58,850 nt of DNA, from positions 1 to 58,850 of the IMG/VR virus record IMGVR_UViG_3300012347_000370. One strand, 5' to 3'. Made by a program: the position numbers and the translations under genes. Shown here piece by piece: positions 6,483-55,645 of this stretch. The notes beneath the pieces were generated by a model that worked only from the letters and a program-made list of their open reading frames with translations, did no database searches and had not been told where the DNA came from. This DNA is from a virus. The stretch's first letter is position 1, and each line of letters starts with the position of its first letter.

Positions 6483-8327
6483 ATGAAGCAGATCGTCCTC
6501 GACTTCGAGACCTATTACGACAACGAGTACTCGCTCCGGAAGATGACCCCGGTGCAGTACATCCAAGACCCGAGGTTCGAGGTGATCGGCTGCGCGGTCA
6601 AGGAGGGTGAAGGCGAGCCGTTCTGGCTGACGTCCGACGAGCTCGCCCGTTACCTCGCGAGGTTGCCCGACAAGGTCGCGGTGATCTCGCACAACGCGCT
6701 GTTCGACATGTGCATCCTGTCGTGGCGCTTCAACTATGTGCCCCACCTGATGATCGACACGCTGGGCATGGCCCGGGCGTGGCTCGCCCACAAGCTCAAG
6801 TCCCTCGCGCTCGCCAGCGTGGCGACGCATCTGGGTCTCGGGGTCAAGGGCGACACCGTCTACAAGGTGGCTGGCATGAACACCGCCGCCATCCGCGCGG
6901 CTGGCTTCTACGACGAGTACGCCGAGTACTCCAAGACAGACGCCGAGCTCTGCTGGAAGATTTACCGCGCACTCATCGACCAGGGCTTCCCGGCAGGCGA
7001 GATCGCGGTCATGGACACCGTGCTGCGCTGCGCCGTCAAGCCGAGGTTTGTCCTCGACGCCACCATGCTGGCCGAGCACCTGCACCATGTGAGGGCGTCC
7101 AAGGAGTCCCTGCTGGCGCGCTGCGGGCTGGCATCTCGCGACGACCTCATGTCGAACGACAGGTTCGCCGAGGCGCTGCGGGCGCTGGGCGTGGAGCCGC
7201 CCACCAAAATCTCCCTGACCACCGGCAAGGAGACCTACGCCTTCGCCAAGACGGACGCGGCGTTCATCGACCTTGAGGAGCACGAGAACACCGACGTGCA
7301 GGCTCTCGTCAGTGCCCGCCTTGGCGTCAAGTCCACCATCGAGGAGACGCGCACCGAGCGCCTCATCGCCATCTCGCAGCTTACCTGGCCCGGTAACCGC
7401 CAAGGTTTGCTGCCGATGCCGCTCCGCTACTCAGGTGCCCACACGCATCGTCTTTCGGGCGACTGGAAGATGAACATGCAGAACCTCCCTCGCGGTGGCA
7501 CCATCAGAAAAGCGATCAAGGCACCGGATGGCTACAAGGTGGTCGCCTGTGACGCCAGCCAGATCGAGGCGCGCATCGCCGGCTGGTTCTGCGGGGCTGT
7601 CGATCTCACCAACGCCTTCGCCAACAAGGAGGACGTCTACTCGTCGTTCGCCTCGCGGGTGTTCGGCTACGAGGTCAAGAAGAAGACCCACCCCGTCGAA
7701 CGCTTCATCGGCAAGACCGCTGTGCTGGGGCTTCAGTACGGGCTGGGCTGGTCGAAGTTCCAGAAGACGGTCGCCATGCAGTCCAAGGCGCAGGTCGGGC
7801 AGGAGGTGAAGCTGGACGACATGGAGGCCACGCGGGTCATCCAGACGTACCGCAACACCTACTCCCAGATCCCGCAGATGTGGCGCACGCTCGACGCGCT
7901 CATCCCGCAGATGACGTCCAAGAACTGCTCGGTGCCGCTCGGCCCGCTGGTGTTCGAGTATCAGCGCGTCCGGCTGCCGTCGGGGCTCTACCTCAACTAT
8001 CACGACCTCCAGAACAAGGATGGCCAGTGGTGGTTTACCCACGGAGGTAAGCCCAAGTACCTCTACGGCGGCAAGATGCTCGAGAACATCGTGCAGGCGC
8101 TCGCCCGCATCTGCGTGATGGATGCGGCCGTCAGGGTCCGCAAGCGCATCGGCCAGCAGCTCCACCTCCAGGTCCACGACGAACTCGTCTACGTCGTCGA
8201 GGACCAGATCGCCGACTCGGTTCTGAGCGTCGTGCACGAGGAAATGTGCACCCGCCCGAACTGGGGTGTGGATATCCCGCTCGACGCCGAGGGTGATGTC
8301 GCCCCCTCCTACGGCGAAGCGAAGTGA
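6483..8327 (+). CDS. Family A DNA polymerase with 3'-5' exonuclease domain
   Basis: Exo I is LDFETYYD, motif A is ACDASQIEARI, motif B is KTAVLGLQYGLG and motif C is QVHDELVYVV. Confidence 0.92.
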   Translation: MKQIVLDFETYYDNEYSLRKMTPVQYIQDPRFEVIGCAVKEGEGEPFWLTSDELARYLARLPDKVAVISHNALFDMCILSWRFNYVPHLMIDTLGMARAWLAHKLKSLALASVATHLGLGVKGDTVYKVAGMNTAAIRAAGFYDEYAEYSKTDAELCWKIYRALIDQGFPAGEIAVMDTVLRCAVKPRFVLDATMLAEHLHHVRASKESLLARCGLASRDDLMSNDRFAEALRALGVEPPTKISLTTGKETYAFAKTDAAFIDLEEHENTDVQALVSARLGVKSTIEETRTERLIAISQLTWPGNRQGLLPMPLRYSGAHTHRLSGDWKMNMQNLPRGGTIRKAIKAPDGYKVVACDASQIEARIAGWFCGAVDLTNAFANKEDVYSSFASRVFGYEVKKKTHPVERFIGKTAVLGLQYGLGWSKFQKTVAMQSKAQVGQEVKLDDMEATRVIQTYRNTYSQIPQMWRTLDALIPQMTSKNCSVPLGPLVFEYQRVRLPSGLYLNYHDLQNKDGQWWFTHGGKPKYLYGGKMLENIVQALARICVMDAAVRVRKRIGQQLHLQVHDELVYVVEDQIADSVLSVVHEEMCTRPNWGVDIPLDAEGDVAPSYGEAK

Positions 8328-14046: not shown

Positions 14047-16899
14047 GTGGTCGAGCACGCGCGCCAATTTCTGAGCAGGGTGATCCCGCAGCCGTCCCCG
14101 GATGGGTCGGCCTATCTGAACATCCACTGGTCCGGCCTGACCGATGAGGGCCGTCGATTCTGGGATGGTCGAGCCTGCGCCTCCGTGGACGAGGCGATCA
14201 AGACCATCAACTGGGTCAACAAGATGGGCGACAAGGACATCTATGTCTGCATGTCGCTCCAGTCCAAGATGGAGGAGAAGACCTCCGGCAAGGGCAACAA
14301 GTACAAGAAGGCGCTGCGCCTCGCTGACGATGCCGTCAGCCTTCGCTCGTTCTTCATCGACGTCGACGTCAAGGAGGAAGCCTACCCCGACACGCGCACG
14401 GCGCTGGCGGCGTTCAAGGATTTCATCGACGCGGTGGGACTACCGATCCCGACCGCCGTGGTGGCGTCAGGCTCCGGCGGCTTCCACGCCCACTGGGTGG
14501 TGGAGCGCGACCTCGCACCCGCTGAATGGCAGGTGGTCGCCTTCGCCCTTGCCGAGGCCACCAAGCAGCAAGGGCTGATCACCGACAGCCAGTGCACCAT
14601 CGACAGCGCCCGCATCCTGCGCGTCCCCAACACCTTCAACCGCAAGAGCGGGGAGCCCAAGCCCGTCACCCTGATGAGCCTTGGTGCCGAGACGACCTAT
14701 GACACCATGGCATCGGTGCTCGAGCCCTACCGTCAGGCGATTACCCCGAGGGTAACCACCAAGATCGAAGCCAACGACGATCTCGGGGCCAACCTGACCA
14801 GCGCGCCGCACCAGGAACTCCAGATCACCGAGATCGCCAAGCAGTGCGGCTTCATCGCCCGCACCATCGGCACCGGTGGCAAGGACAACCCGCAGCCGCT
14901 CTGGTTCATGACCGCCTCCATCGCGACCTTCGTCGAGGACGGGCGCGATGCGTTCCACCTGATGTCGAACCAGCACCCGGGCTATCGGCCGAAGGACACG
15001 GACGAGCTCTACGACCGCGTCGTCGCCAACCAGAAAAAGCGCGACCTGGGCTGGCCGAAGTGCCAGAAGATCGCAGCCTACGGCGCGAAGGAGTGTCAGG
15101 GCTGCCCCCTGCTGGCGCAGAACAAGTCGCCGCTGAACTTCGCCCTGCCTGCCGCCAACGACCAGCCCGACAACACGCTGCCGGAGAAGTACGCCCGCAG
15201 CGCCGAGGGGCTGATCCTCTATCGGCACGTCGATGACGATGGCGTCGTGACGACCATCCCCATCTGCCACTACCCCATCCTGAACGGCTGGCTCTCCAAC
15301 AACCCGTGGACCTTCCATTTCACCACGCGGGGCGAGACCGGGCGCAAGCACACGGTGGAGGTACCTGCCGAGGTAATCTTCGCCAAGGACGGGTTCAACA
15401 AGTACCTCGGTGCGAAAGGCTTCTTCCTCACAGACAAGCAGTACAAGATCCTCAAGGAGTTCTTCGTGAGCTGGCTTCAGAAACTTCAGACCCAGAAGGA
15501 CAGCGTGATCTCTGCCGCACCCTTCGGATGGTCGGTGGTCGACGGGAAGATCGAGGGCTTCGCCTTCGGTTCCCGCGTCTGGATGAAGGATGGTGACCGC
15601 CCTGCGGCCAACCCCAATCCGGTCCTCCAGTACCAATACACCCCGAAGGGCGACATCGCTCCGTGGCGTGAGCTCGCCCGCATCGTCTACGAGCAGAACC
15701 GCCCCTCGCTGAACGCGATCCTCGCCGTGGCCTTCGCTGGTCCGCTGGTGAAATTCACCGGGTTCCCCGGTCTGATCATGAACGCCTACAGCCAAGAGTC
15801 CGGCATCGGCAAGACGACCGCCATGAAGTGCTCGCAGGCGGTCTGGGGCCACCCCGTGCTGGCGATGCAGGCGCTCAACGACACCACCAACTCGGTGCTC
15901 GGCAAGATGGGTCAGATCAGGTCGCTGCCGGTCTACTGGGACGAATTGAAGTCCGAGCAGCAGGTGAAGCGGTTCTGTTCCATCGTGTTTGACCTGACCG
16001 GCGGGCGCGAGAAGACGCGGATGAACGCCGACGCCACGCTCAAGATGAGCGGCACCTGGCAGACCATGCTGGTGTCAGCGTCCAACGACTCCATCATCGA
16101 CGGCATGGCGCGCGAGGTGGGCTCCACCACGGCTGGCCTGCACCGCCTGTTCGAGTACGTCGTGCCGAAACCTGAGCAGGTAACTCACGACGTCGGGGCC
16201 GTGCAGCGCCTCGCCGGCAAGCTCGAGGACAACTACGGCCACGCTGGCATGATGTACGCCAAGTTCCTCGGCCTGAATTGGAAGCGCATCGAGCAGGAGG
16301 TCGCCTCGGTTCAGGACGACATCTGTCGCGAGATCGGCGTCAAGCAGGAGGAGCGGATGTGGGCAGCCACGATCACCGTCATCCTCAAGGGCGCGGACTA
16401 TGCCAACGAGCTCGGCCTGACCAACATCGACGTGCCCGCGCTCAAGGACTTCCTCTTGGACGTTCTCTCGAAGATGCGCGGCGAGGTCGAGGCATCCCCG
16501 ACGTCGATGAACAACGACATGTCCGTGTCGTCCATCCTCGCCGAGTTCCTGAACAACACCCGGTCGCGCAACACCCTGATCACCAACCGCATCTGGGTGT
16601 CGAAGGGCAAGCCGACCAAGGGGGCCATCCAGGTTCTCGTGGACGCCAGCAAGCTGGGCGAGATCGCCGTGCAGATCGGGCGCGAGGACAAGCTGATCCG
16701 CATCTCGTCCACCTTCCTGACGCGCTGGATGGGCGAGCGGGGCTACAGCCGCCACACCTTCATCAAGAAGCTGGAAGCTGAGTTCGGGCTCCAGAAGGTG
16801 AACGGCAAGCTGGGCGGCGGCACCGACATGGCCTGCGCCATGGAGCACCTGGTGGAGCTGGACATGAACCACCCGAAGCTGTCGGCGTTCCTCGAATGA
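14047..16899 (+). CDS. Bifunctional AEP primase-polymerase / P-loop (SF3/DUF927-like) helicase
   Basis: AEP motifs FFIDVDVK (DxD) and SGSGGFHAHW; Walker A is SQESGIGKTT. GTG start follows GGAGAA. Confidence 0.8.
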   Translation: MVEHARQFLSRVIPQPSPDGSAYLNIHWSGLTDEGRRFWDGRACASVDEAIKTINWVNKMGDKDIYVCMSLQSKMEEKTSGKGNKYKKALRLADDAVSLRSFFIDVDVKEEAYPDTRTALAAFKDFIDAVGLPIPTAVVASGSGGFHAHWVVERDLAPAEWQVVAFALAEATKQQGLITDSQCTIDSARILRVPNTFNRKSGEPKPVTLMSLGAETTYDTMASVLEPYRQAITPRVTTKIEANDDLGANLTSAPHQELQITEIAKQCGFIARTIGTGGKDNPQPLWFMTASIATFVEDGRDAFHLMSNQHPGYRPKDTDELYDRVVANQKKRDLGWPKCQKIAAYGAKECQGCPLLAQNKSPLNFALPAANDQPDNTLPEKYARSAEGLILYRHVDDDGVVTTIPICHYPILNGWLSNNPWTFHFTTRGETGRKHTVEVPAEVIFAKDGFNKYLGAKGFFLTDKQYKILKEFFVSWLQKLQTQKDSVISAAPFGWSVVDGKIEGFAFGSRVWMKDGDRPAANPNPVLQYQYTPKGDIAPWRELARIVYEQNRPSLNAILAVAFAGPLVKFTGFPGLIMNAYSQESGIGKTTAMKCSQAVWGHPVLAMQALNDTTNSVLGKMGQIRSLPVYWDELKSEQQVKRFCSIVFDLTGGREKTRMNADATLKMSGTWQTMLVSASNDSIIDGMAREVGSTTAGLHRLFEYVVPKPEQVTHDVGAVQRLAGKLEDNYGHAGMMYAKFLGLNWKRIEQEVASVQDDICREIGVKQEERMWAATITVILKGADYANELGLTNIDVPALKDFLLDVLSKMRGEVEASPTSMNNDMSVSSILAEFLNNTRSRNTLITNRIWVSKGKPTKGAIQVLVDASKLGEIAVQIGREDKLIRISSTFLTRWMGERGYSRHTFIKKLEAEFGLQKVNGKLGGGTDMACAMEHLVELDMNHPKLSAFLE

Positions 16900-46227: not shown

Positions 46228-46460
46228 TGACTGACATCATCAAATTCTCCGGCATCTCCAGGCTCGATTTGGACCCCGACCGGGTGCTGACCGAGGCGAT
46301 TGGTCAGATGGATCAGGTGGTGATCTGCGGCTTCGACAAGGAGGGCAACCAGTACTTCGCGTCCTCTGTCGCCGACGGCGGCGCCTCTCTCTGGCACCTT
46401 GAACGCGCGAAGTGGGCGCTCATGAAAACCACGGATGAGCTCGAAAATGGTAGCTATTAA
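46227..46460 (+). CDS. Hypothetical protein (77 aa)
   Basis: ATGA-type overlap; in frame with track ORF 46113..46460. Confidence 0.55.
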   Translation: MTDIIKFSGISRLDLDPDRVLTEAIGQMDQVVICGFDKEGNQYFASSVADGGASLWHLERAKWALMKTTDELENGSY

Positions 46461-47895
46461 TTACACAGCCCCGCCCACCTGCGCTCGCTTCATGAAGAGC
46501 CAGAGCTTCGGGCGCCTCATCGCCGGACCGGTCGGCTCGGGCAAGACGACCGCATGTCTTTTCGAGCTGTTCCGGCGTGCGCTTGAGCAGCATCCGGCCC
46601 CTGACGGCCTGCGCTACACGCGCTTCGCCATCGTGCGCCAGACCTTGAAGCAGCTCAAGGACACCGTCCTGAAGGACATCCTCGACTGGCTGAAGGGCGT
46701 GGCCACCTACAAAGTCACCGACAACACGATCTACGTCCAGTTCGGCGACGTGCGATCCGAGTGGGTTCTGATCCCTCTCGACAACCCGGAAGACCAGGCC
46801 CGCCTGCTCTCCATGCAGCTCACCGGCGCGTGGATGTCGGAGTGCATCGAGATGGACGTCGCGCTGATCAGCCCGCTCGCTGGCCGCTGCGGACGCTACC
46901 CGGGCGCGACTCTGGGCGGCTGCACCTGGATGGGCATCATCGCCGACACCAACATGCCCTCCGAGGGCTCGTCCTGGCACAAGTTCATGGAGCTCGAAGT
47001 TCCGGCCGACTGGCAGATCTTCATCCAACCGGGTGGCATGGACGACGACGCCGAGAACCTCGAGTGGCTGACCCAGACCCCCGACACGCTGCTCCTGCCG
47101 CCCACGGATGAGCGGCGGCGCGATCAGGGGCGGGAGTACTACAAGCGGTTCATCCGCTCGAACTCCCCCGACTGGTGCAAGCGGTACGTCCACGCCCAGT
47201 TCGGCGACGACCCGTCGGGCTCGGCCGTGTTCCGCGAGTCCTTCAAGCAGCACTGGCATGTGGTGGACGAACTCGAGCCGATCTCGTCCTACCCGCTGAT
47301 CGTCGGCCTCGACTTTGGGCGCGACCCCTGCGCGGTCATCTGCCAGCCCGATCACAGGGGGCGGCTTCTGGTCCTCGAGGAGGTCATCGCCGAGGACATC
47401 GGCCTGGAGCTCCAGCTCCAGCGGGCGATCAAGCCTGCGCTCATGCAGGAACGCTACATCGGCAAGAGCGTGTACATCGTGGGTGACCCCGCCGGACGCC
47501 AGCGGTCGACCCTCTACGAGGAGACGTCCTTCGACCTGATCAAGCGCGAGGGGCTGATGGCCTACCCCGCCCCGACCAACGACATCGCCAAGCGCATCAA
47601 CGCGGTCGAGAGCTGGCTGCTGGGCTCACGGGACGGCGGACCGGCCATGCTGATCGACCGGGAACGCTGCCCCACGCTCGTGCGGGCGCTGTCCGGCGGC
47701 TACCGGTATGGGCGCACGCGCGGTGGTCAGCGCAAGCCCCTGCCCGACAAGAACGAGTACAGCCACGTCATGGACGCCTTCCAGTATGCCTGCTCGGCGG
47801 CCCACGGCGGGATGACGGATATGATCGCCAACCGCATGAGCCGCCGTCACAGGAGCAGCGACCGCCAGAGGATCAGCGCCTCGGCCTGGACGTAA
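46435..47895 (+). CDS. terL: Terminase large subunit (start 46435 or 46447)
   Basis: Walker A is GPVGSGKT. It has nuclease-domain acidic motifs (VGLDFGRD, IVGDPAG). Confidence 0.85.
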   Translation: MSSKMVAINYTAPPTCARFMKSQSFGRLIAGPVGSGKTTACLFELFRRALEQHPAPDGLRYTRFAIVRQTLKQLKDTVLKDILDWLKGVATYKVTDNTIYVQFGDVRSEWVLIPLDNPEDQARLLSMQLTGAWMSECIEMDVALISPLAGRCGRYPGATLGGCTWMGIIADTNMPSEGSSWHKFMELEVPADWQIFIQPGGMDDDAENLEWLTQTPDTLLLPPTDERRRDQGREYYKRFIRSNSPDWCKRYVHAQFGDDPSGSAVFRESFKQHWHVVDELEPISSYPLIVGLDFGRDPCAVICQPDHRGRLLVLEEVIAEDIGLELQLQRAIKPALMQERYIGKSVYIVGDPAGRQRSTLYEETSFDLIKREGLMAYPAPTNDIAKRINAVESWLLGSRDGGPAMLIDRERCPTLVRALSGGYRYGRTRGGQRKPLPDKNEYSHVMDAFQYACSAAHGGMTDMIANRMSRRHRSSDRQRISASAWT

Positions 47896-48183: not shown

Positions 48184-49221
48184 TTACCGGTGCAAAGTTA
48201 CAGGATTGATGTGAGTGTACCTCTTCAAATTCTTCCAAGACCGGTGGCCAGAGACAACTGCAACTTCCTCAATCCGGTACCCGGACTCGAACAATCTAGA
48301 GATGCCGTCGTGCCGTAAATCATGAAAGCGGAGGTCTGAAATTCCTTTCCCTGCGACGGCTAATCCAAACGCGGCGGACACGGTCGTCACGCCATAAGGG
48401 AAAACCCTACCCCGTCGTCGAAAAGCACTATTTGCTTTGCTTATGAGCTCGCACGGGTCAATGACGTTACCCCTGTAGGTAACCGGTCCTACGAGCAGTG
48501 GAACGCGGTCATCTCGCCCAGTTTGGGTCGTCGGGTCTTTGCGATTTCTGATCCAGATCGTCCGGGATTTCGGATCGTAATCCTCCCAGGTGATGCCCAG
48601 GATTTCGCCAAGTCGCATCGTTGTGCAGATCGCGAAGAGCACGATGTCCATCATCGGCACGCTGGAGCGCGGCCGGTCGCGGAACCACTCCTCGAGCTGC
48701 ATGAGCTCGTCCTCGGTGGGGCGGCGCGTGCGCTCCTCGGGGTCGCCGACCACGCCCATCACGCGCAATGATTTGATGGTGGCCGTGACCGCAGCGCGGG
48801 CGCGCATAGCCTCCTCGTTCTCGCAAAGCACCGCGCCGTGCTCGATGGCCGTGCCCAGATAGGACAGCTCCTGGAGGATCGTCGCGGGGCCAACCCCATC
48901 GCGGGAGCGCGTCGCAGCATAGTCCGACACGGCACGGGTGCCGATCTCAGTCATCCGCCAGTCGCCCCAGTATTCGAGGAGGCGCTCCATGACATGCTGC
49001 TTGGTGCGTCCACCCGGCCGGCTCATGCGAGAGTATTCGCTGTACAGCTCTCTGTACATGAGGTGCGGATTCTTGGACGACGTCTTGTGCAGCGTCTCCT
49101 CTTGATTTCGAGACCAGATCACGGCCTCATTCTTGGTGCGGAAGGTCTTGGAGACGGCAGGCTTATCCTTGAGGCGCACCTGAGCACGCCAGCCGGAGCT
49201 GATCTTGTAGATGGATGCCAT
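48184..49221 (-). CDS. int: Tyrosine recombinase (phage integrase)
   Basis: MRLGEI (Arg I), FHDLRHDG (HxxR) and LKRYTH (Tyr). Confidence 0.9.
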   Translation of the reverse strand: MASIYKISSGWRAQVRLKDKPAVSKTFRTKNEAVIWSRNQEETLHKTSSKNPHLMYRELYSEYSRMSRPGGRTKQHVMERLLEYWGDWRMTEIGTRAVSDYAATRSRDGVGPATILQELSYLGTAIEHGAVLCENEEAMRARAAVTATIKSLRVMGVVGDPEERTRRPTEDELMQLEEWFRDRPRSSVPMMDIVLFAICTTMRLGEILGITWEDYDPKSRTIWIRNRKDPTTQTGRDDRVPLLVGPVTYRGNVIDPCELISKANSAFRRRGRVFPYGVTTVSAAFGLAVAGKGISDLRFHDLRHDGISRLFESGYRIEEVAVVSGHRSWKNLKRYTHINPVTLHR

Positions 49222-49409
49222 GGCTTCCCTGTGCAGTCCGTGTGCACTGAATGTGGCGGGAAACCGACATTACCCATGTCGCAAACGGGTGTCAAACCGC
49301 GTCGGTAATCTTGTAACTAACTGATAACCCAGTGGTTTTTCCCGGTTTTCAGCCGTCGCCCGAGAGAGGCGGAATAAATGCAAATCCCATGTCCCATGGG
49401 CGCAATAAT

Positions 49410-49439
49410 ATAACCCGGCCAGTTACCTAGCCGGGTTAT
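49410..49439 (-). terminator. Terminator-like hairpin ending the fibre cassette
   Basis: ATAACCCGGC-N10-GCCGGGTTAT, followed on the - strand by ATTATT. It lies 19 nt past stop 49458. Confidence 0.55.
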
Positions 49440-49457
49440 GGTGCAATTTTTGTGCAC

Positions 49458-49799
49458 TCAGGCCGCGTCTTCGGGGATCACGACCGTGATGAAGTTGACG
49501 CTTGCCGACTTCGCTTTCGGGAATGTTTCGATGGTGCCACCCGAGAAGGTCACCTCGAACTCGCCCTGATGCTCGCCCGCGACGGCGGTGTCGCCAGCGC
49601 GCCAGGCGAAGCGTACCACTCCGGTGGTCGCGTCGACGACGGTGGCCGGGGCGCGGGAGACGAGCACAGTGCCATCCTCGCCGCGCATGTTGAAGACCAC
49701 GGTTGCGCCAGCCAGCGAGACAGGCGCCTTCTTTGCATCGAGGAGCTGGACCTCAAGAACCGGGCCAGTGTCGTTGCGTTTGATCAGAAATTCAGCCAT
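49458..49799 (-). CDS. BppU-N/Ig-like small tail protein (113 aa)
   Basis: The pattern NDTGP..V.L.D...PV.L.GATV.F.M....G......A..VD...G.V.F.W..GDT...G resembles baseplate upper protein N-domains. Confidence 0.45.
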   Translation of the reverse strand: MAEFLIKRNDTGPVLEVQLLDAKKAPVSLAGATVVFNMRGEDGTVLVSRAPATVVDATTGVVRFAWRAGDTAVAGEHQGEFEVTFSGGTIETFPKAKSASVNFITVVIPEDAA

Positions 49800-49800
49800 G

Positions 49801-52635
49801 TCACGACCCGTTGCTGGCGATTACGATGTAGTTGGGAGTGCTTTTCAGCAATACGCTCCCGGGCTTCTCAGTCAAGATCTCAGCAGACGAAGCTCCGCCG
49901 CCAGAGAACTGAACGCTTCCAGCGCCACCGGACAGCAAGACCACCGGATACTCGCTCGAGCCGTCGAAGTCTGCTTGCGTCGCCCCGGACGAAAACACCA
50001 CGGTGCTCGAGGTGTCCTCGCCCAGGCGGACGATGCGCCCGAGGTTCAACTGCTGCGCCACTGCCGTGAGGCTGAACCCGACCTGGATCAGGGCCGCGCC
50101 GCGAGCTGCAAGCTGCGCGATGGCAGCGCCCTCGATGACCAGCTCCCCGGAGGCAGTCCCGCGCGCCACGCGCTTGGCGATGGCCGAGCCATCCAGCGGC
50201 AGCGAACCAGCGATGGTCCCGAGGTTCAGCACCGCGCCTTGGATAGTCGGCTCGACGACGAAGACGGCGGAGGCGTTACCTGTCAGGGTAACTGCGCCAG
50301 CGCCGGAGCTCGACACGGAGAAGATACCGGCCGCCGAGCCGCGAACGGTCTTGAAGGCCACCGCCGTACCTGCGAGCGGCAACGAACCGCTGGTGGTACC
50401 CGCAACGCGCGCCAGGGCGGTGGCGCTCTGCGAAAGCTCCAGAGTCGCGGTGAGCGAGCCCTGGGCGGGCACAATCGCGTCGCTCGCGCCGGTCAGCTCG
50501 AGGTCAAGGTCGACCTCGGCCGAGAGGGAGACAGCCCCGACGCCGCTTCCCTCGAAGGGCACGGTGACCGAGGAAGTGCCGAGCACGCGGGCAGCGGCAC
50601 TGGCAGCGCCAGCGAAGGACATCTCGCCGCTGACCGAAGCAAGGTTGCGCACGCCCCCGGTGAATACGAGCTCGAACTCAACAGCGTCGTCCACCGACCC
50701 GGTGACGAGCACCACACCCTCGGCCAGCCCCGCAAAGGCGACCTGAGCGTCAACCGAGGCGAAGATGAAGGGGAGACCAGTGACGGTGCCCTCGGCCAAG
50801 CCCGTGAGCTCGACAGTGCCGCTGGCTTGGACGATGGTGCCCAGGTTCTCGGTGACCGTGCCTTCAGCAGAGCCGGCAAAGCCAACGGTGCCCTCGGCAG
50901 AGCCGGTGCTGACCGACTGGACGATACCCTCCGCAGAGCCGCTGACGTCGACCGAGCCGTCCGCAGAGCCTCCGATGCCCGTCAGGACCACATAGCGCAG
51001 GATGACGATGCCGTCGCCGCCACGGCCCGACTGGAAGGTGGTGGAGGCCGACCCGACGCCGCCCGAACCGCCGCCCGAGTTGGGAGCGGCGCTCAGCGTG
51101 CTTGCGCCGTAGCGACCTGCTGAGCCGCCACCCGAAGCCGCGCCATTGGTCGTCGAGCTCCCGCCCGCACCGCCACCGCCACCGCCGAACGGGATGGGGT
51201 AGTCGTAGATGGCGTAGGAGGCCGCGACACCGCCGTCGCCGCCCTTCGAGCCTGTGCCCGAGGTGCCGTTTCCGCCAGCGCCCCCAGAGCCACCGCCACC
51301 GCCAGCATATCCGGTGGTGCCGTTACCGTTGCCGCCGCCGTTGCCCTGCCCCGAAGTGCCTGCGGCCCCCGCATTGGTCGTCGAACCACCGCCACCGCCA
51401 CCGCCGGAGCCACCGCTCACTGGGGCAGTGTTGTGCGCACCGCCATAGCCGCCGCGCGTGGCCGTCAGCCCGTTGAACGTGGTGCTGGTACCGAGGTTGC
51501 CCCTGGCAGTGCCCGTGCCCGTCGTCGATGCGCCGCCGACACCGATGACGATGGGGTATGACCCTGCGTCGAGAGTGATCGGGCTGCCGATGTTGTTGAG
51601 CACACCGCCCGCACCGCCACCGCCACCGCCGCCAGCGTTGATGCTTCGGCCGCCGGACGCGCCGCCGCCGACAAGGACGTATTCGACGTTGGAGATGCTG
51701 CTCTCGGCCGTGAACGTCCCGTCGGAGACGAACACATGGTAGCGATAGGGCGTCCCGCCGATGGTCTCGTCGAAGGTCGTGTTGGCCGTCGGGATGAACG
51801 ACGCCGGATAGCGGACGAGAACGATACCGTCACCGCCCTTGCCGGAGATCGTGCTCCCGCCACCAGCAGCAGCATAGGTGCTGGCCACAGCACCGCCGCC
51901 CCCACCAAGACCGTTCGTGCCGGGGTTGCCGGCACCGCCCATCTTACCTGCGCCGCCGCCACCAGAGCCACCAGTGCCTACGTTACTCCCGCTGCCGGTT
52001 GCACCACCACCACCGCCATACGTCGTAGACGTCCCAGAAATCGTCGATGCGACGCCAGCGCCGCCATTTCGCACGGAAGCAGCCGCAGAAGCACCGCCGC
52101 CGCCACCGCCCGAGTGGGAGATGCTCGAGGAGTAGGAGCCAGCGGCACCGTTGGTGCCCTGCCCCGAAGTGCCCGTCCCGGCGACACGGTTGGCAGCAGT
52201 GCTGGAGCCCCCGCCGCCACCGCCCGAGCCACCATTTCGTCCGGGTGCGCCTGGACTGCCGCCACCGCCACCGCCGACTGCGGTCAGTCCTGCAAAGGTG
52301 GAGTTCCCGCCGTTGTTCCCCTGCCCTGTCGCTCCAGCACCGCCGACGCCGATGGTGACCGGGTACGAGCCGGCGGTCAGCGTGAGCGGAGATGCAGAAG
52401 TGTTCCAGAGGGCACCGCCAGCGCCGCCGCCGCCAGCACTGCCCGAGGGGCCGGATGTGCCCGAGTTCACCCCGGTGCTGCGCCCACCCGAGCCGCCACC
52501 TGCAACCAGCAGGTATTCGATGTCGGCGCCGCCTTCGGTGACTGTGAGGGTGTCGTCAGCCGTGAACGTATGGAGCCGCCAGAGTTTTCCGGCGTCCCAG
52601 ATGTAGCTGATCGAACCCCCGGTCGCCTTCGTCAT
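49801..52635 (-). CDS. Glycine-rich fibre/receptor-binding-type protein (944 aa) with internal duplication
   Basis: Two copies of a module ([WY]R.H.F...(D/G)T(L/F)T.....(I/V)EY(L/V)LV(A/G)GG(G/A)SGGRS...GGGGGAGG..L.AGSYP(V/I).IGVGG). Confidence 0.7.
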   Translation of the reverse strand: MTKATGGSISYIWDAGKLWRLHTFTADDTLTVTEGGADIEYLLVAGGGSGGRSTGVNSGTSGPSGSAGGGGAGGALWNTSASPLTLTAGSYPVTIGVGGAGATGQGNNGGNSTFAGLTAVGGGGGGSPGAPGRNGGSGGGGGGSSTAANRVAGTGTSGQGTNGAAGSYSSSISHSGGGGGGASAAASVRNGGAGVASTISGTSTTYGGGGGATGSGSNVGTGGSGGGGAGKMGGAGNPGTNGLGGGGGAVASTYAAAGGGSTISGKGGDGIVLVRYPASFIPTANTTFDETIGGTPYRYHVFVSDGTFTAESSISNVEYVLVGGGASGGRSINAGGGGGGGAGGVLNNIGSPITLDAGSYPIVIGVGGASTTGTGTARGNLGTSTTFNGLTATRGGYGGAHNTAPVSGGSGGGGGGGSTTNAGAAGTSGQGNGGGNGNGTTGYAGGGGGSGGAGGNGTSGTGSKGGDGGVAASYAIYDYPIPFGGGGGGAGGSSTTNGAASGGGSAGRYGASTLSAAPNSGGGSGGVGSASTTFQSGRGGDGIVILRYVVLTGIGGSADGSVDVSGSAEGIVQSVSTGSAEGTVGFAGSAEGTVTENLGTIVQASGTVELTGLAEGTVTGLPFIFASVDAQVAFAGLAEGVVLVTGSVDDAVEFELVFTGGVRNLASVSGEMSFAGAASAAARVLGTSSVTVPFEGSGVGAVSLSAEVDLDLELTGASDAIVPAQGSLTATLELSQSATALARVAGTTSGSLPLAGTAVAFKTVRGSAAGIFSVSSSGAGAVTLTGNASAVFVVEPTIQGAVLNLGTIAGSLPLDGSAIAKRVARGTASGELVIEGAAIAQLAARGAALIQVGFSLTAVAQQLNLGRIVRLGEDTSSTVVFSSGATQADFDGSSEYPVVLLSGGAGSVQFSGGGASSAEILTEKPGSVLLKSTPNYIVIASNGS

Positions 52636-52838
52636 TCGGCTGAGACCTCATCAGGAGGGGGTTGGAAACCGCCCTCGGTCGTCCAGGTCCAGTCGATGGC
52701 CGGATACTGATCCATGGTTTCAACCTCCACCCACACGCCAGGGTAGAGGTCAGGATTCTGGTCGATGCGCTCGCGCGTCACACGACGGACGTCGGTGACC
52801 ACGCCGTCAGTCACCTGAGCGAAGTAGCCAGTCGACAT
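52632..52838 (-). CDS. Hypothetical protein (68 aa)
   Basis: Overlap-coupled to the glycine-rich gene. Confidence 0.55.
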   Translation of the reverse strand: MSTGYFAQVTDGVVTDVRRVTRERIDQNPDLYPGVWVEVETMDQYPAIDWTWTTEGGFQPPPDEVSAE

Positions 52839-52848
52839 CGGCCAGCCC

Positions 52849-53250
52849 TCACGCGCCGCCGGCGGTCAGGGTGAAGGCCGTGACGGTGACCTGCTGACCG
52901 GTCGCGATGCTGGTGTTGTCCAGCGTCATGTCGCCACCGCCGCCGGTCGCGGTGACCGTGCCCTGGATGTGGCAGGTGCCGCCCTGCTTGATCCGGAAGT
53001 GACCGGCCGTGCCCGTCGCATCAGCGGACGTGTCCTGCCAGGTGCCCAGCAAAGTCTTTGCACCATTGGATGCTGCCGAGAGCCAATCGGCCGGCAGCGG
53101 AAGGGTCGCCAGCACAGTGCCGGTATCGGCAGCGGCGGCGTTCAGCGGGACCGCACCCGAGCGGATCTCCAGCGTGGGAGAGGTGCCAATCGTGGATTCG
53201 ATGGCATCGAGGGCTGCGTTACGGGTCGCGGTCGAGAGTTGGAAAACCAT
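52849..53250 (-). CDS. Hypothetical fibre-cassette protein (133 aa)
   Basis: First gene of the - strand cassette leaving the control hub. Confidence 0.6.
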   Translation of the reverse strand: MVFQLSTATRNAALDAIESTIGTSPTLEIRSGAVPLNAAAADTGTVLATLPLPADWLSAASNGAKTLLGTWQDTSADATGTAGHFRIKQGGTCHIQGTVTATGGGGDMTLDNTSIATGQQVTVTAFTLTAGGA

Positions 53251-53930
53251 CGTCAGATCCTCTGCTGTGCGCGAGGTCAGGCTTCGTTACCTCGCCAGGT
53301 AATCGTTGACCCGTATAGCAGATGAGCTGAAGTGAAACAAGGTTGCTTTCAAGTAATCGTTTTATGGTGTGATGGTTACATTTTGTATTTTGAGGTTCTG
53401 CGTGTTTGCAAGGTACCTAAAAAAGGCACCCCCCGCCCCGGCCCCCCCTGTCCAGATGGGGGTGGGGGTACCCCGTGAGGTAATGCCGCCGTTACTAGGG
53501 TGTAACCAGTGAATGATCAGACAGTAACCGCCCACACTAGGGCAGGACAGCGAACCTTCCCCGCTGATCATAATGGGATAGGCGATGGTGGACTGATGGT
53601 CTGCTTGGGGTCTGGCGCACCTACTTACCTGCAAAGGTAACGGTAGCCTAGGGCAAGGATAAACGGTGTCGCCACCGCCTTGCGGATCGCATGGTCGCCC
53701 CGCCGGGGCCGCGCATGACGCGGATAATATCAAACGACAGCCCGCGCGCATACCAGTCTAAGCGCGACCGGATAACGGTGAGTGAACGGGGTTTGGCAGC
53801 CCCTAGTAAAAGCCGCGACACGTCACCCTGACAAGGTGACTTCCCATCAAGACATTCAGCGGCGGCGGCGGCGGGCAAAGGACAAAGGTTAAGGTGGAGC
53901 AAACCTAGACACTCCACCGATATCTTTCAC

Positions 53931-53955
53931 GGTAACACCATCGCACGGTGTTACC
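53931..53955. promoter_or_regulatory. 9-bp-arm palindrome GGTAACACC-ATCGCAC-GGTGTTACC
   Basis: Perfect inverted repeat. Its core, CACCATCGCACGGTGTT, recurs exactly at 54418..54434. Confidence 0.6.
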
Positions 53956-53982
53956 TTGCAAGGTATCACGAAAGGATGCGTC

Positions 53983-54234
53983 ATGGCTCAACGCTGGATG
54001 CAAGCGAAGATGATCACCGCCCGCAAGAACGGTATCACCATCTCGGGATGTAATCGTGCGATGGGCGGCGTGATGGATGATCGCCCGCTCGGCCCGACAA
54101 AAGAGGCGACGTTGTTCAAGCCCATCGCCAAGCGCAAGGACGCGCCGATGGTTGTGCGGCTCGCACCGTCCGACCGTCCCAAGGCATGGGGCGCCACGAA
54201 GAAGGCCCGCCGCGCCGCTAACCCGCGCAGGTAA
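53983..54234 (+). CDS. Small basic protein (83 aa)
   Basis: SD is AAGGA. ATG 53983 is in frame with track ORF 53956..54234. The stop lies inside GGTAAC. Confidence 0.55.
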   Translation: MAQRWMQAKMITARKNGITISGCNRAMGGVMDDRPLGPTKEATLFKPIAKRKDAPMVVRLAPSDRPKAWGATKKARRAANPRR

Positions 54235-54338
54235 CGTGTGTGATGGTGCGACCGTTCAACCTGTAGATGACGGTCGAACAATGTGAGAACATCGGCAGGG
54301 AGAGACGCCAGCGGGCTGTTCCTCTCTATCTATATCAA

Positions 54339-54358
54339 TAATCTTTAATCTTTAATCT
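54339..54358. repeat. AT-rich heptamer repeat (TAATCTT x ~3)
   Basis: TAATCTTTAATCTTTAATCT. A 14-bp inverted copy lies at 54460..54473. Confidence 0.8.
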
Positions 54359-54417
54359 ACAAAACAGGTAGGGCGACCCAAATTCCGGTCCGACGGGGGT
54401 GACCCTGCGCCCCGTAT

Positions 54418-54434
54418 CACCATCGCACGGTGTT
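54418..54434. repeat. Second copy of the 17-bp element CACCATCGCACGGTGTT
   Basis: Exact match to 53936..53952. Confidence 0.85.
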
Positions 54435-54459
54435 CGCCGAAACAGCCCTAGACGTTTTG

Positions 54460-54473
54460 AAGATTAAAGATTA
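54460..54473. repeat. Inverted copy (AAGATTAAAGATTA) of the TAATCTT repeat
   Basis: Reverse complement of 54339..54352. Confidence 0.8.
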
Positions 54474-54546
54474 TCGAGAAATCGTGTAATATCAAAGGGT
54501 TACGCGATCTCGACCTGCGTTAATCTGCAAACTGTGAAAATTTCAT

Positions 54547-54562
54547 CTGTCACTATTGACAG
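54547..54562. promoter_or_regulatory. Operator-like perfect palindrome CTGTCA-CTAT-TGACAG overlapping the -35
   Basis: Seen directly. A second, imperfect copy lies at 54589..54604. Confidence 0.55.
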
Positions 54563-54584
54563 CAACCTAGCAGGTTACTAATTC
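54556..54584 (+). promoter_or_regulatory. sigma70-like early promoter (TTGACA-N17-TAATTC)
   Basis: Consensus -35 with a 17-nt spacer that contains AACC-TAGCA-GGTTAC; upstream of gene 54621. Confidence 0.5.
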
Positions 54585-54588
54585 ATGG

Positions 54589-54604
54589 CTGTCAACTGTG
54601 ACAT
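54589..54604. promoter_or_regulatory. Second operator-like site CTGTCA-ACTG-TGACAT (followed by TTGACAG)
   Basis: Lies just downstream of the -10 of the 54556 promoter. Confidence 0.5.
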
Positions 54605-54620
54605 TTGACAGGGGAAAGCC

Positions 54621-54842
54621 ATGCCCAAATCGACCCCCAAAACGGCCAATGAACTGGCCACCTCGCTTGCCGCGCTGCTTGCCGAACGCGCCGTCTTGAA
54701 GGCCCGTCAACGCACCATCGCGATCAAGATCAAGCGCATTCGTGCCGCGCTTGACCGCCACCCATCGGTGACCATCGCACAACCGATGGACTCCACCCCC
54801 GATCCGTTCGCTGACTTGGATAGCATCCTCGGCGACGAGTAA
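54621..54842 (+). CDS. First early-arm protein (73 aa, helical, basic N-terminus)
   Basis: SD is GGGGAAAG. The stop TAA lies in TAACCCGCGCAGGTAACG. Confidence 0.6.
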   Translation: MPKSTPKTANELATSLAALLAERAVLKARQRTIAIKIKRIRAALDRHPSVTIAQPMDSTPDPFADLDSILGDE

Positions 54843-54907
54843 CCCGCGCAGGTAACGCGCTCTCATCAACGCCCCCACCACGGGCACCCCACGGAAGGAA
54901 CCCCACT

Positions 54908-55645
54908 ATGAACATGATCCTGAACATGACCACCGCCGCCTCGAACGCATCCTCGCTTGGCGACAACTCGGCCGGCCGCCTCGACAAGGTGAAGCAGAAG
55001 CTCGGCGTCCTCGGCAAGCAGGAGGCTGCCGGTCTGTCCTCGCGCCGCGACGCCGGCATCGCTCTCGCCGCCTATGCCTACGATGGTGACATCGACGAGG
55101 GTGACGCGGAGACCTGCTACGACACCTACATTACCTCGCTGGGTAAGAACGCCGCCGCCCGCCATGTGGCGACCGACACGTCGAACGGTCGCAAGGCGAA
55201 CGTGTCCAAGTTCCGCCAGTTCATCAAGATGGGCGCCCTGCCGCAGGTCGACGGCCGCGAGGTGCTGGCGCGTGCCGTGTCGCTGACCGAGCAAGTTGCC
55301 GCCGCAGGTAACAAGGTCAAATCCCCCTTCGACGCCCTGCTGGATGTGTGCCGCTCGCAGGCCGATCAGCCCGACGTGCCGCTGACCGACGAGCAGATTG
55401 TCGCTGCCGTGTCCAAGCCCGAGCCCAAGCAGAAGGACGAGATGGAAAAGCTGGTCGCTGCCTACAAGGCCGCGCACAAGCTGGCCGAGACCATCCCCTC
55501 CGCCCACACGCTGGCGGCTGTCGATGCCTATCGCGACGCCATCGTCGAGGCTGGTGGCGACGTGCCCGCCATGACCAAGGAAGAGAAAGAGCAGGCTGCC
55601 TTCATGGCCAAGGCCGCCAAGCTGGGCTTCGTGGTCGCCAAGTAA
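54908..55645 (+). CDS. Hypothetical protein (245 aa)
   Basis: SD is GGAAGGAA; long sense ORF. Confidence 0.65.
   Translation: MNMILNMTTAASNASSLGDNSAGRLDKVKQKLGVLGKQEAAGLSSRRDAGIALAAYAYDGDIDEGDAETCYDTYITSLGKNAAARHVATDTSNGRKANVSKFRQFIKMGALPQVDGREVLARAVSLTEQVAAAGNKVKSPFDALLDVCRSQADQPDVPLTDEQIVAAVSKPEPKQKDEMEKLVAAYKAAHKLAETIPSAHTLAAVDAYRDAIVEAGGDVPAMTKEEKEQAAFMAKAAKLGFVVAK

Follow-up and report, generated by a model that had tools for sequence, protein, structure and literature searches.

Positions 53251-53982 of IMG/VR virus record IMGVR_UViG_3300012347_000370 form a divergent gap of 732 (~730) nucleotides (nt), bounded by a - strand fibre cassette (49458-53250) on one side and by the first + strand gene, starting with the ATG at 53983, on the other. 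The record was analysed over its whole 58,850-nt stretch, here called the window, which represents a circularly assembled phage genome of ~58.8 kb with a 55-bp overlap between its two ends. We consider it about an even chance (probability roughly 0.5) that the gap is a composite non-coding control or leader region, lying where the packaging/integration arm of a temperate alphaproteobacterial podophage borders on its early arm. In kind, such a region is ordinary, namely a phage early-control intergenic region. Judged from the related contigs compared in this work, its layout is shown to be conserved across the phage lineage.

Layout of the gap in related phages

The comparison set comprised ~25 related phage contigs (designated by L numbers), the cultured Rhizobium phage RHph_TM27A included, and was gathered via the ATPase (L081), the exact 18-mer CCAGATGGGGGTGGGGGT, a 245-amino-acid (aa) early protein together with the integrase, and the terminase TerL. 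In the insertion-free relatives L139, L140, L142 and L151 (L140 with a different gene inserted), the order begins with TerL (+), xis (-) and int (-), followed by ~350 nt with TGTGCA repeats and an AT-rich block. It continues with GGTACCT-A6, a ~30-nt C- or G-rich tract, a box of near-invariant sequence (G-box), a palindrome copy and one or two ACTAGG boxes, and it ends with a variable stretch of 300-450 nt, a GC hairpin, two palindromes, the ribosome-binding site (RBS) and ATG of a small open reading frame (ORF), iterons and the early genes. This layout is kept in L139, L140, L142, L146 and L151, and the integrase-free relatives L088 and L094 retain it as well. RHph_TM27A, cultured on Rhizobium phaseoli N831 and with no annotated integrase, carries the same block within its 680-nt divergent gap. 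The presence of the block in this phage suggests that the host is an alphaproteobacterium, probably a member of the Rhizobiales. A literature search on the RHph phages gave nothing relevant.

In the window, the gap is composed of the following elements.

53251-53349, - strand: leader/promoter region of the inserted tail-fibre cassette
53286-53302: palindrome copy GTTACCTCGCCAGGTAA within the cassette leader
53350-53424, no strand assigned: AT-rich conserved block, GTAAT..ATGG..TTTTG..TTGCAAGGTACCTAAAAAA, ending in a near-invariant aaggTACC-A-rich box
53474-53419, - strand: leftward intrinsic-terminator-like element, in which the C tract (53427-53448) pairs with the G-box arm, followed by U6 (53424-53419)
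53452-53469, + strand: G-box CCAGATGGGGGTGGGGGT, with the highest sequence conservation in the region
53469-53482, no strand assigned: palindrome copy TACCCCGTGAGGTA, start of the 53469-53548 part
53491-53506, no strand assigned: ACTAGGG box GTTACTAGGGTGTAAC of the left block
~53533-53545, no strand assigned: ACTAGGG box CACACTAGGGCAG of the left block
53549-53900, no strand assigned: centre segment of 352 nt, specific to this phage
53548-53566: hairpin CAGC/GCTG with loop CCUUCCCC
53822-53840: hairpin GTCACC/GGTGAC with loop CUGACAA
53893-53918, + strand: GC-rich hairpin GGTGGAG/CTCCACC with a moderately T-rich tail, abutting the first palindrome
within 53919-53982, + strand: palindromic motif site 1 of the right block, degenerate TATCTTTCACGGTAA
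53951-53965, + strand: palindromic motif site 2 of the right block, TTACCTTGCAAGGTA
53931-53955: 9-bp-arm palindrome GGTAACACC/GGTGTTACC with box CACCATCGCAC, bridging the two motif sites
upstream of ATG 53983, + strand: RBS AAGGA, after the two palindromes

The left block (53350-53548) is 97% identical to L137 and 92% identical to L146. Alignment and anchored comparison over 16-17 phage contigs defined its core, consisting of GGTACCT-A6, the C-rich tract and the near-invariant box CCAGAnGGGGGTGGGGG. The invariant part of this core is bipartite, with aaggTACC followed after 36-41 nt (mostly 38) by tGnCCAGAnGGGGGtgGGGg. The exact G-box 18-mer occurs in 10 IMG/VR contigs, and variants of the form CCAGAnG5-6TG5-6 were found in further contigs and in RHph_TM27A. 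The elements of the adjoining part, 53469-53548, are common to L137, L146, L092, L081, L139, L142 and RHph_TM27A, and likeness to the closest relatives ends abruptly at 53548-53549.

On the - strand, the C tract and the G-box arm form a structure that agrees with the definition of an intrinsic terminator, a GC-rich stem-loop directly followed by at least five U, and 53474-53419 was the only terminator-like site called by a terminator scan. With a hairpin of ~-35 kcal/mol and U6 in the window, the element is kept in 14 homologues (window included), at energies of -30 to -42 kcal/mol and each with A5-6 ahead on the + strand. RNAalifold paired the C and G runs in 11 of 11 sequences, although the pairs are invariant; the T-run is conserved in the alignment. 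In L161 and L162 the G-box is altered to GGGGGCAGGGG, matching CCCTGCCC in the C tract. Unlike the arm of an intrinsic terminator, the G-box arm is near-invariant across phages in which TerL diverges to 51% identity; ordinary terminators conserve structure, not sequence. A search with the G-box 18-mer against 185,579 genomes returned 29 matches, 26 of them chance-like in varied taxa, and no conserved host gene.

The right block (53901-53982) shows the same order of hairpin, palindrome 1, ~12 nt, palindrome 2, RBS and ATG in L081, L137, L146, L158, L088, L131, L094 and L086. Stem sequences of the hairpin at 53893-53918 differ between eight homologues, with pairing retained in all 56 of 56 stem cells and compensatory changes at five of the seven stem positions. 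Placed against the first palindrome and with a moderately T-rich tail, this hairpin looks like a rightward terminator or pause site.

Between these blocks, the 352-nt centre accounts for most of the stems listed in a preliminary description of this DNA. Homologues of the centre were found neither by blastn against ~220 fetched loci and a plasmid collection nor by an IMG/VR motif scan, and a phage-collection search with 53000-54300, centre included, matched only the flanking fibre-cassette gene. In L137 and L146, with integrases 93% and 88% identical to that of the window, the conserved flanks are the same but enclose unrelated sequence; even at 92-97% identity in the adjoining conserved block, the centre is wholly replaced. 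Just two small centre hairpins, read by eye, are common to relatives: the one at 53548-53566 resembles hairpins of L146, L142, L131 and L094, and the one at 53822-53840 resembles hairpins of L081 and L137.

Putative control of the early arm

In the arrangement that we propose, the C-tract/G-box hairpin with its U6 on the - strand would stop leftward transcription and so insulate the cassette, int and xis from the control region. Host-polymerase signals should apply, since no phage RNA polymerase was detected among the window proteins scanned against Pfam or PHROGs. Rightward transcription would be terminated or paused right before the first early gene by the GC hairpin at 53893-53918. Two TTACC-N6-GGTAA palindromes between this hairpin and the RBS are predicted binding sites for a protein recognizing a lineage-wide motif, and binding there may control whether the first early gene is expressed. 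The centre, 352 nt long, would be a fast-exchanging module without demonstrable structure or target.

The palindrome is not confined to the gap. TACC-N5-7-GGTA occurs in 50 copies in the window against 0.35 expected, at a median spacing of ~950 nt, within long genes as well as at junctions between genes (for example at 543, 2832, 4149, 19008, 24268, 31089, 40346, 53288, 53469, 53626, 53952 and 58761), and its fuller form is GTTACC-N4-6-GGTAAC. Four of the 50 copies fall within the 732-nt region, compared with 0.6 for an even spread. At several early-gene junctions the sequence is TAACCnnGAGAGGTAACACCATG, which covers the stop codon, the Shine-Dalgarno sequence and the start. Relatives including RHph_TM27A carry 0.5-2 copies per kb, and most unrelated loci carry none. 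A literature search on this palindrome gave nothing relevant.

Similar to early control regions of the lambda type, the gap lies between the integration and early arms, a terminator-like hairpin faces the integrase side, paired palindromes stand directly ahead of the first early gene, and the centre is swapped at conserved flanks, as in immunity regions. It differs from them in that no repressor or cro-like gene was found in or adjoining it, that the palindrome is genome-wide (~50 copies) instead of restricted to the control region, and that ~730 nt (1.37 kb with the iteron block) almost free of genes is long. A lysis-lysogeny or other regulatory switch, one of the functions considered in the preliminary description, comes closest to the evidence, given the divergent boundary, the terminator-like hairpins and the paired palindromes before the first early gene. 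Pfam and PHROG scans of early genes revealed no repressor gene, and the best operator/promoter candidate, at 54543-54611, lies outside the region.

Several observations weigh against the gap being a control or leader region of this type. Some 50 palindrome copies per genome are far above the usage of a classical repressor. No canonical U-run follows the hairpin at 53893-53918, whose tails contain 5-7 T in 12 nt with interruptions, and the terminator scan made no call there. A sigma-70 consensus scan found no promoter in 52800-55000. In five of 19 homologues the tract is G-rich and forms no hairpin, yet the G-box sequence is retained after loss of its pairing partner, which again sets the element apart from intrinsic terminators. 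The box must therefore do more than form a stem, and the sequence itself must be recognized by something. An N4-like virion RNA polymerase with hairpin promoters was also considered and rejected, the 2374-aa protein of the window being DarB-like and not a polymerase.

Coding potential, edges and neighbouring elements

The preliminary description had found no credible ORF in the gap, and our analysis agrees: the longest + strand ORF has 48 aa. It had further reported two - strand ORFs of implausible composition; they are listed here together with the first early gene.

53362-53751, - strand: ORF of 129 aa without an RBS
53648-53917, - strand: ORF of 89 aa without an RBS
53983-54234, + strand: first early ORF, an 83-aa basic protein outside the region that sets its right edge

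The judgement on the two - strand ORFs is upheld by their G+C content at third codon positions (0.60 and 0.62, versus 0.72-0.93 in real genes of the genome), the missing RBS and the absence of any Pfam or PHROG match to either. Six-frame comparisons with homologous regions revealed no conserved reading frame. L081 and L137 differ by mismatches without 3-base periodicity (31/28/27) and by indels of 1, 1, 2, 3, 11 and 12 nt. Protein coding in the region was rejected on the basis of the family searches, the six-frame comparison and the substitution periodicity, and the homology search found no small protein-coding gene of the kind that would have spoken against a non-coding gap. The first early ORF has no Pfam or PHROG match; it is 41% identical to the corresponding ORF of L081, and its start, MAQRWMQAK, is common to L081 and L158.

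At the left edge, L132 and L139, which lack the insertion, have TGTGCAC repeats near the integrase that continue straight into the GTAAT/ATGG block, and L140 carries a different 126-aa gene at the same insertion point, after TGTGCACTCAG. By this comparison, the window is shown to harbour a mobile fibre cassette inserted between the integrase and the control region, and the left ~100 nt of the gap therefore belong to the cassette. Identity to L137 is 97% over 53251-53548. The 944-aa cassette protein has a glycine-rich domain, and the 133-aa cassette protein matches a virion protein family. The latter is mobile and was unusable as an anchor for comparison, since 159 viral contigs with otherwise unrelated neighbourhoods carry copies. 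Its gene shares 69-72% DNA identity with genes of the cyanophages Pan4, Mae-JY02 and Mel-JY03. The closest relatives, L137/L144 and L146, have different cassettes at the same place.

Around the gap, the window carries the following elements.

46435-47895, + strand: TerL, left of the region
48184-49221, - strand: tyrosine integrase, left of the region and 4 kb away
49222-49458: TGTGCA cluster stretch (in relatives: L139 2384-2700; L151/L152; L142 2088-2330)
49458-53250, - strand: fibre cassette, a mobile insertion of four ORFs (113, 944, 68 and 133 aa)
54335-54358, no strand assigned: iteron direct repeats AATCTTTAATCT, 350 nt right of the region
54457-54477, no strand assigned: inverted iteron copies, ~100 nt from the direct repeats
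54543-54562: CTGT-N8-ACAG/ACAT palindrome 1, overlapping TTGACA-17-TAATTC
54592-54611: CTGT-N8-ACAG/ACAT palindrome 2, located with palindrome 1 just upstream of a 73-aa ORF at 54621

Genes on the + strand, comprising the early and replication functions, extend from 53983 through the wrap to ~18000 and encode an ATPase, a DUF2201 metallopeptidase, a PolA-family polymerase, an SNF2 helicase and a DUF927 primase-helicase. The - strand carries its genes between 53250 and 18363; these comprise structural genes and also code for an SU10-type portal and the 2374-aa DarB-like protein. A tRNA/tmRNA scan of the window found none; in the relative L139, a phage-borne tRNA-Met gene (942-1018) lies between TerL and xis.

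The TGTGCA(C/G) repeats are clustered directly upstream of the integrase start and again ~200 nt further, with a conserved GGAAACC..CCGGATCGAAACC..GTCAAA stretch between the clusters. To the right of the gap, a CACCATCGCAC box lies at 54411-54441 between the direct and inverted iterons, and a CT-rich tract precedes the iteron block. Relatives have the same iteron layout, each with a unit of its own (AATCTATAATCT, ATTCTTTATTCT, TAAATCTTAAATC) and matching inverted copies. The block is likely the origin for the DUF927 primase-helicase (14047-16899). It is similar to the iteron origins bound by primase-helicases of the P4 alpha type in that the phage encodes such an enzyme and has direct and inverted iteron copies nearby; it differs in placement, since the iterons lie at 54335-54477 and none comparable occurs inside 53251-53982. 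The CTGT-N8-ACAG spacing of the two further palindromes is that of the gammaproteobacterial LexA box, and L142 has the same CTGTCACTATTGACAG as this area of the window. The palindromes at 54543-54611 are candidates for an early promoter with operators. For origin and operators alike, this outside stretch (54300-54611) offers better candidates than anything inside the region.

A segment of ~330 nt with the TACCT/G-box element was also seen in two bacterial contigs, L111 (1-492) and L099 (280-700). In L111 it adjoins a tRNA-Ser(GCT) gene in an Aestuariivirga metagenome-assembled genome (MAG), and in L099 a tRNA-like remnant in a Rhizobium MAG, where it is flanked by a host sulfatase pseudogene and the 10-bp direct repeat GACGTCAATT. 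These segments may be prophage remnants or a small independent element. Their interpretation as prophage ends by tRNA-Ser was dropped, the left flank in L099 being a host pseudogene and the supposed - strand gene not an ORF. Integrated prophages sought via integrase relatives did not materialize either: L151 is a free form and L153 an unrelated element.

Alternative readings and implications

The stems, the 9-bp-arm palindrome, the G/C tract (53427-53474), the A6 run (53419-53424) and the motif copies noted in the preliminary description are all in place, and its characterization of the gap as dense in hairpins is right with regard to local inverted repeats. Counting maximal perfect stems of at least 5 bp with loops of 3-14, we found 18 in the region against 6.8 +/- 2.7 expected, a number reached in none of 500 dinucleotide shuffles; among 582 sliding windows of the genome (mean 10.8), the region ranks 13th. 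These repeats do not amount to a stable overall RNA fold, and several of the listed stems are copies of the palindromic DNA motif and not RNA helices. Minimum free energy z-scores were -0.12 (+ strand) and -1.06 (- strand) for 53540-53925 and -0.7 and -1.0, respectively, for a slightly longer stretch, so that on neither strand was the window's centre more stable than dinucleotide-shuffled sequence. The Rfam scan suggested earlier retrieved no family at the gathering threshold in the whole window, and none was found in the non-coding regions of 14 related loci. The sole match with E < 1, c4-a1b1 at 53753-53807 (20.1 bits versus a threshold of 46.7, E = 0.034), sits in the homologue-free centre. 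The phage immunity and early context and this weak match recall the c4 antisense RNA of P1/P7 (RF01695, RF03163) and the P4 CI RNA immunity; in contrast to P1/P7 c4, the match scores 20.1 bits instead of 46.7 and falls in the unconserved centre, with no c4 RNA match and no complementary genomic target. Complementarity to the rest of the genome nowhere exceeds 13 nt, and matches of up to 13 nt occur at chance level. Covariation, another of the proposed checks, was evident in the hairpin at 53893-53918 (five of seven positions) and was seen by eye in two further small hairpins, but the C/G-run pairs of the left block never vary, and 53549-53900 has no homologues to compare. A structured RNA, possibly acting in RNA-based immunity as had been proposed, is thus weakly supported: family, fold and target searches speak against it, but single hairpins keep their pairing by compensatory change in relatives. 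Given these hairpins, the gap may give rise to a transcript with local structure.

The most specific form of this idea, which we regard as tentative and on the unlikely side, is a non-coding RNA gene of ~350-450 nt running rightward from a promoter just past the ACTAGG boxes to the hairpin at 53893-53918, and serving as a regulator or immunity determinant with phage-variable specificity. Relatives keep a CTCTTTGACAT (TTGACAT) box there that resembles a -35 element; the window lacks this box and has AGGACA, a ~18-nt spacer and CATAAT at the candidate promoter. In relatives, the CUUCCCC-loop hairpin and the terminal hairpin pair via compensatory change, and the differences between L081 and L137 (~90% identical) are concentrated at compensating stem positions without codon periodicity. 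Folds of the + strand are well below shuffles in L164 (z of -5.4), L086 (-4.4), L161 (-3.4) and L094 (-3.2), whereas the centres of the window, L081, L132, L152 and L171 fold no better than shuffles. Immunity regions exchange as modules between conserved flanks, and the centre, too, is exchanged as a discrete module despite integrases that are 88-93% identical; the lack of a protein repressor among the early genes scanned would likewise fit such an RNA. Against it stand the empty Rfam result in the window and the 14 related loci, the absence of an antisense target longer than 13 nt in the genome, and a centre whose lack of homologues deprives it of covariation support. More far-reaching and clearly doubtful is the possibility that the stretch of 350-450 nt from the G-box block to the hairpin ahead of the first early gene is a hypervariable non-coding immunity determinant (RNA or DNA sites), exchanged as a cassette among alphaproteobacterial temperate podophages with no protein repressor found near the early control region, and that the bipartite TACC-38-nt-G-box is a new cis-element for packaging, priming or insulation.

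The near-invariance of the G-box, beyond its pairing, would also suit a site for packaging or a physical terminus of the genome (cos, pac or a terminal-repeat edge) with TACC-~38 nt-G-box at its centre, which we think improbable. The box is always located 0.2-5.5 kb downstream of a TerL of one clade (51-96% identical), also in phages with other neighbouring genes (L087 type), but it is missing from many phages of this clade that have 8 kb of sequence downstream. Four independent contigs break within ~20 nt of the box (L081, with its contig edge at position 1-3, and L157, L163 and L218, at contig ends), and the scaffolds L151 and L152 have N-gaps just after it (~7456-7558 in reverse-complement coordinates). 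Assemblies, however, commonly break at long G/C runs and at strain divergence points, and the sequence turns variable ~100 nt past the box; the window itself was assembled as a circle with its junction elsewhere. The breaks may reflect assembly or sequencing trouble at the G/C hairpin, co-occurring strain divergence or real DNA ends, and assembly failure explains them equally well. A phage attachment site (attP) with its crossover in or near 53475-53700 is less probable still. In its favour, the region lies directly upstream of int in relatives, the G-box segment is found ~200 nt from a tRNA-Ser gene or remnant in the MAG contigs L111 and L099, a GATGGT..TGATGGTCTG repeat is common to these two and the window (53584-53603), and phages with almost the same integrase abruptly cease to resemble each other at 53548. 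Yet an attP should occur with and beside an integrase gene, and the region is 4 kb from int; L088 and L094, without an integrase, and RHph_TM27A, with none annotated, retain the conserved block, which argues against this reading. Moreover, phages with 88-93% identical integrases have unrelated sequence right of 53548, no tRNA-like fragment is present in the region, and L111 and L099 are small G-box islands with no clear prophage ends, the left flank of L099 belonging to the host pseudogene. The TGTGCA repeats, of arm-site type, are situated next to int at 49222-49458, outside the region, and this stretch is a more plausible place than the region for attP and the int promoter. Least probable, and in our view very much so, is a replication origin inside the gap, another function proposed earlier. 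In its favour, the region is non-coding and is AT-rich at 53330-53425, a G-rich box such as this one could serve to start an R-loop primer, and a PolA-family polymerase and a DUF927 primase-helicase are among the phage's proteins. A repeat search of 53251-53982 nevertheless detected no iterons (at least three direct repeats of a 10-20-bp unit by an AT-rich stretch), and the block of iterons with matching inverted copies, conserved in relatives, lies 350 nt rightward.

A composite control or leader region, our preferred reading, leaves the near-invariant 18-nt G-box and the fully replaced ~350-nt centre unexplained. The genome-wide palindrome is probably the more important lead and constitutes a separate finding. 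If the preferred reading is true, the gap shows how a largely uncultured lineage, with the RHph_TM27A group of Rhizobium phages as its closest cultured members, arranges the border between integration and early functions: an insulating terminator is directed at the integrase side, another conserved hairpin comes next, and the first early gene is preceded by a pair of the palindromes that recur throughout the genome.

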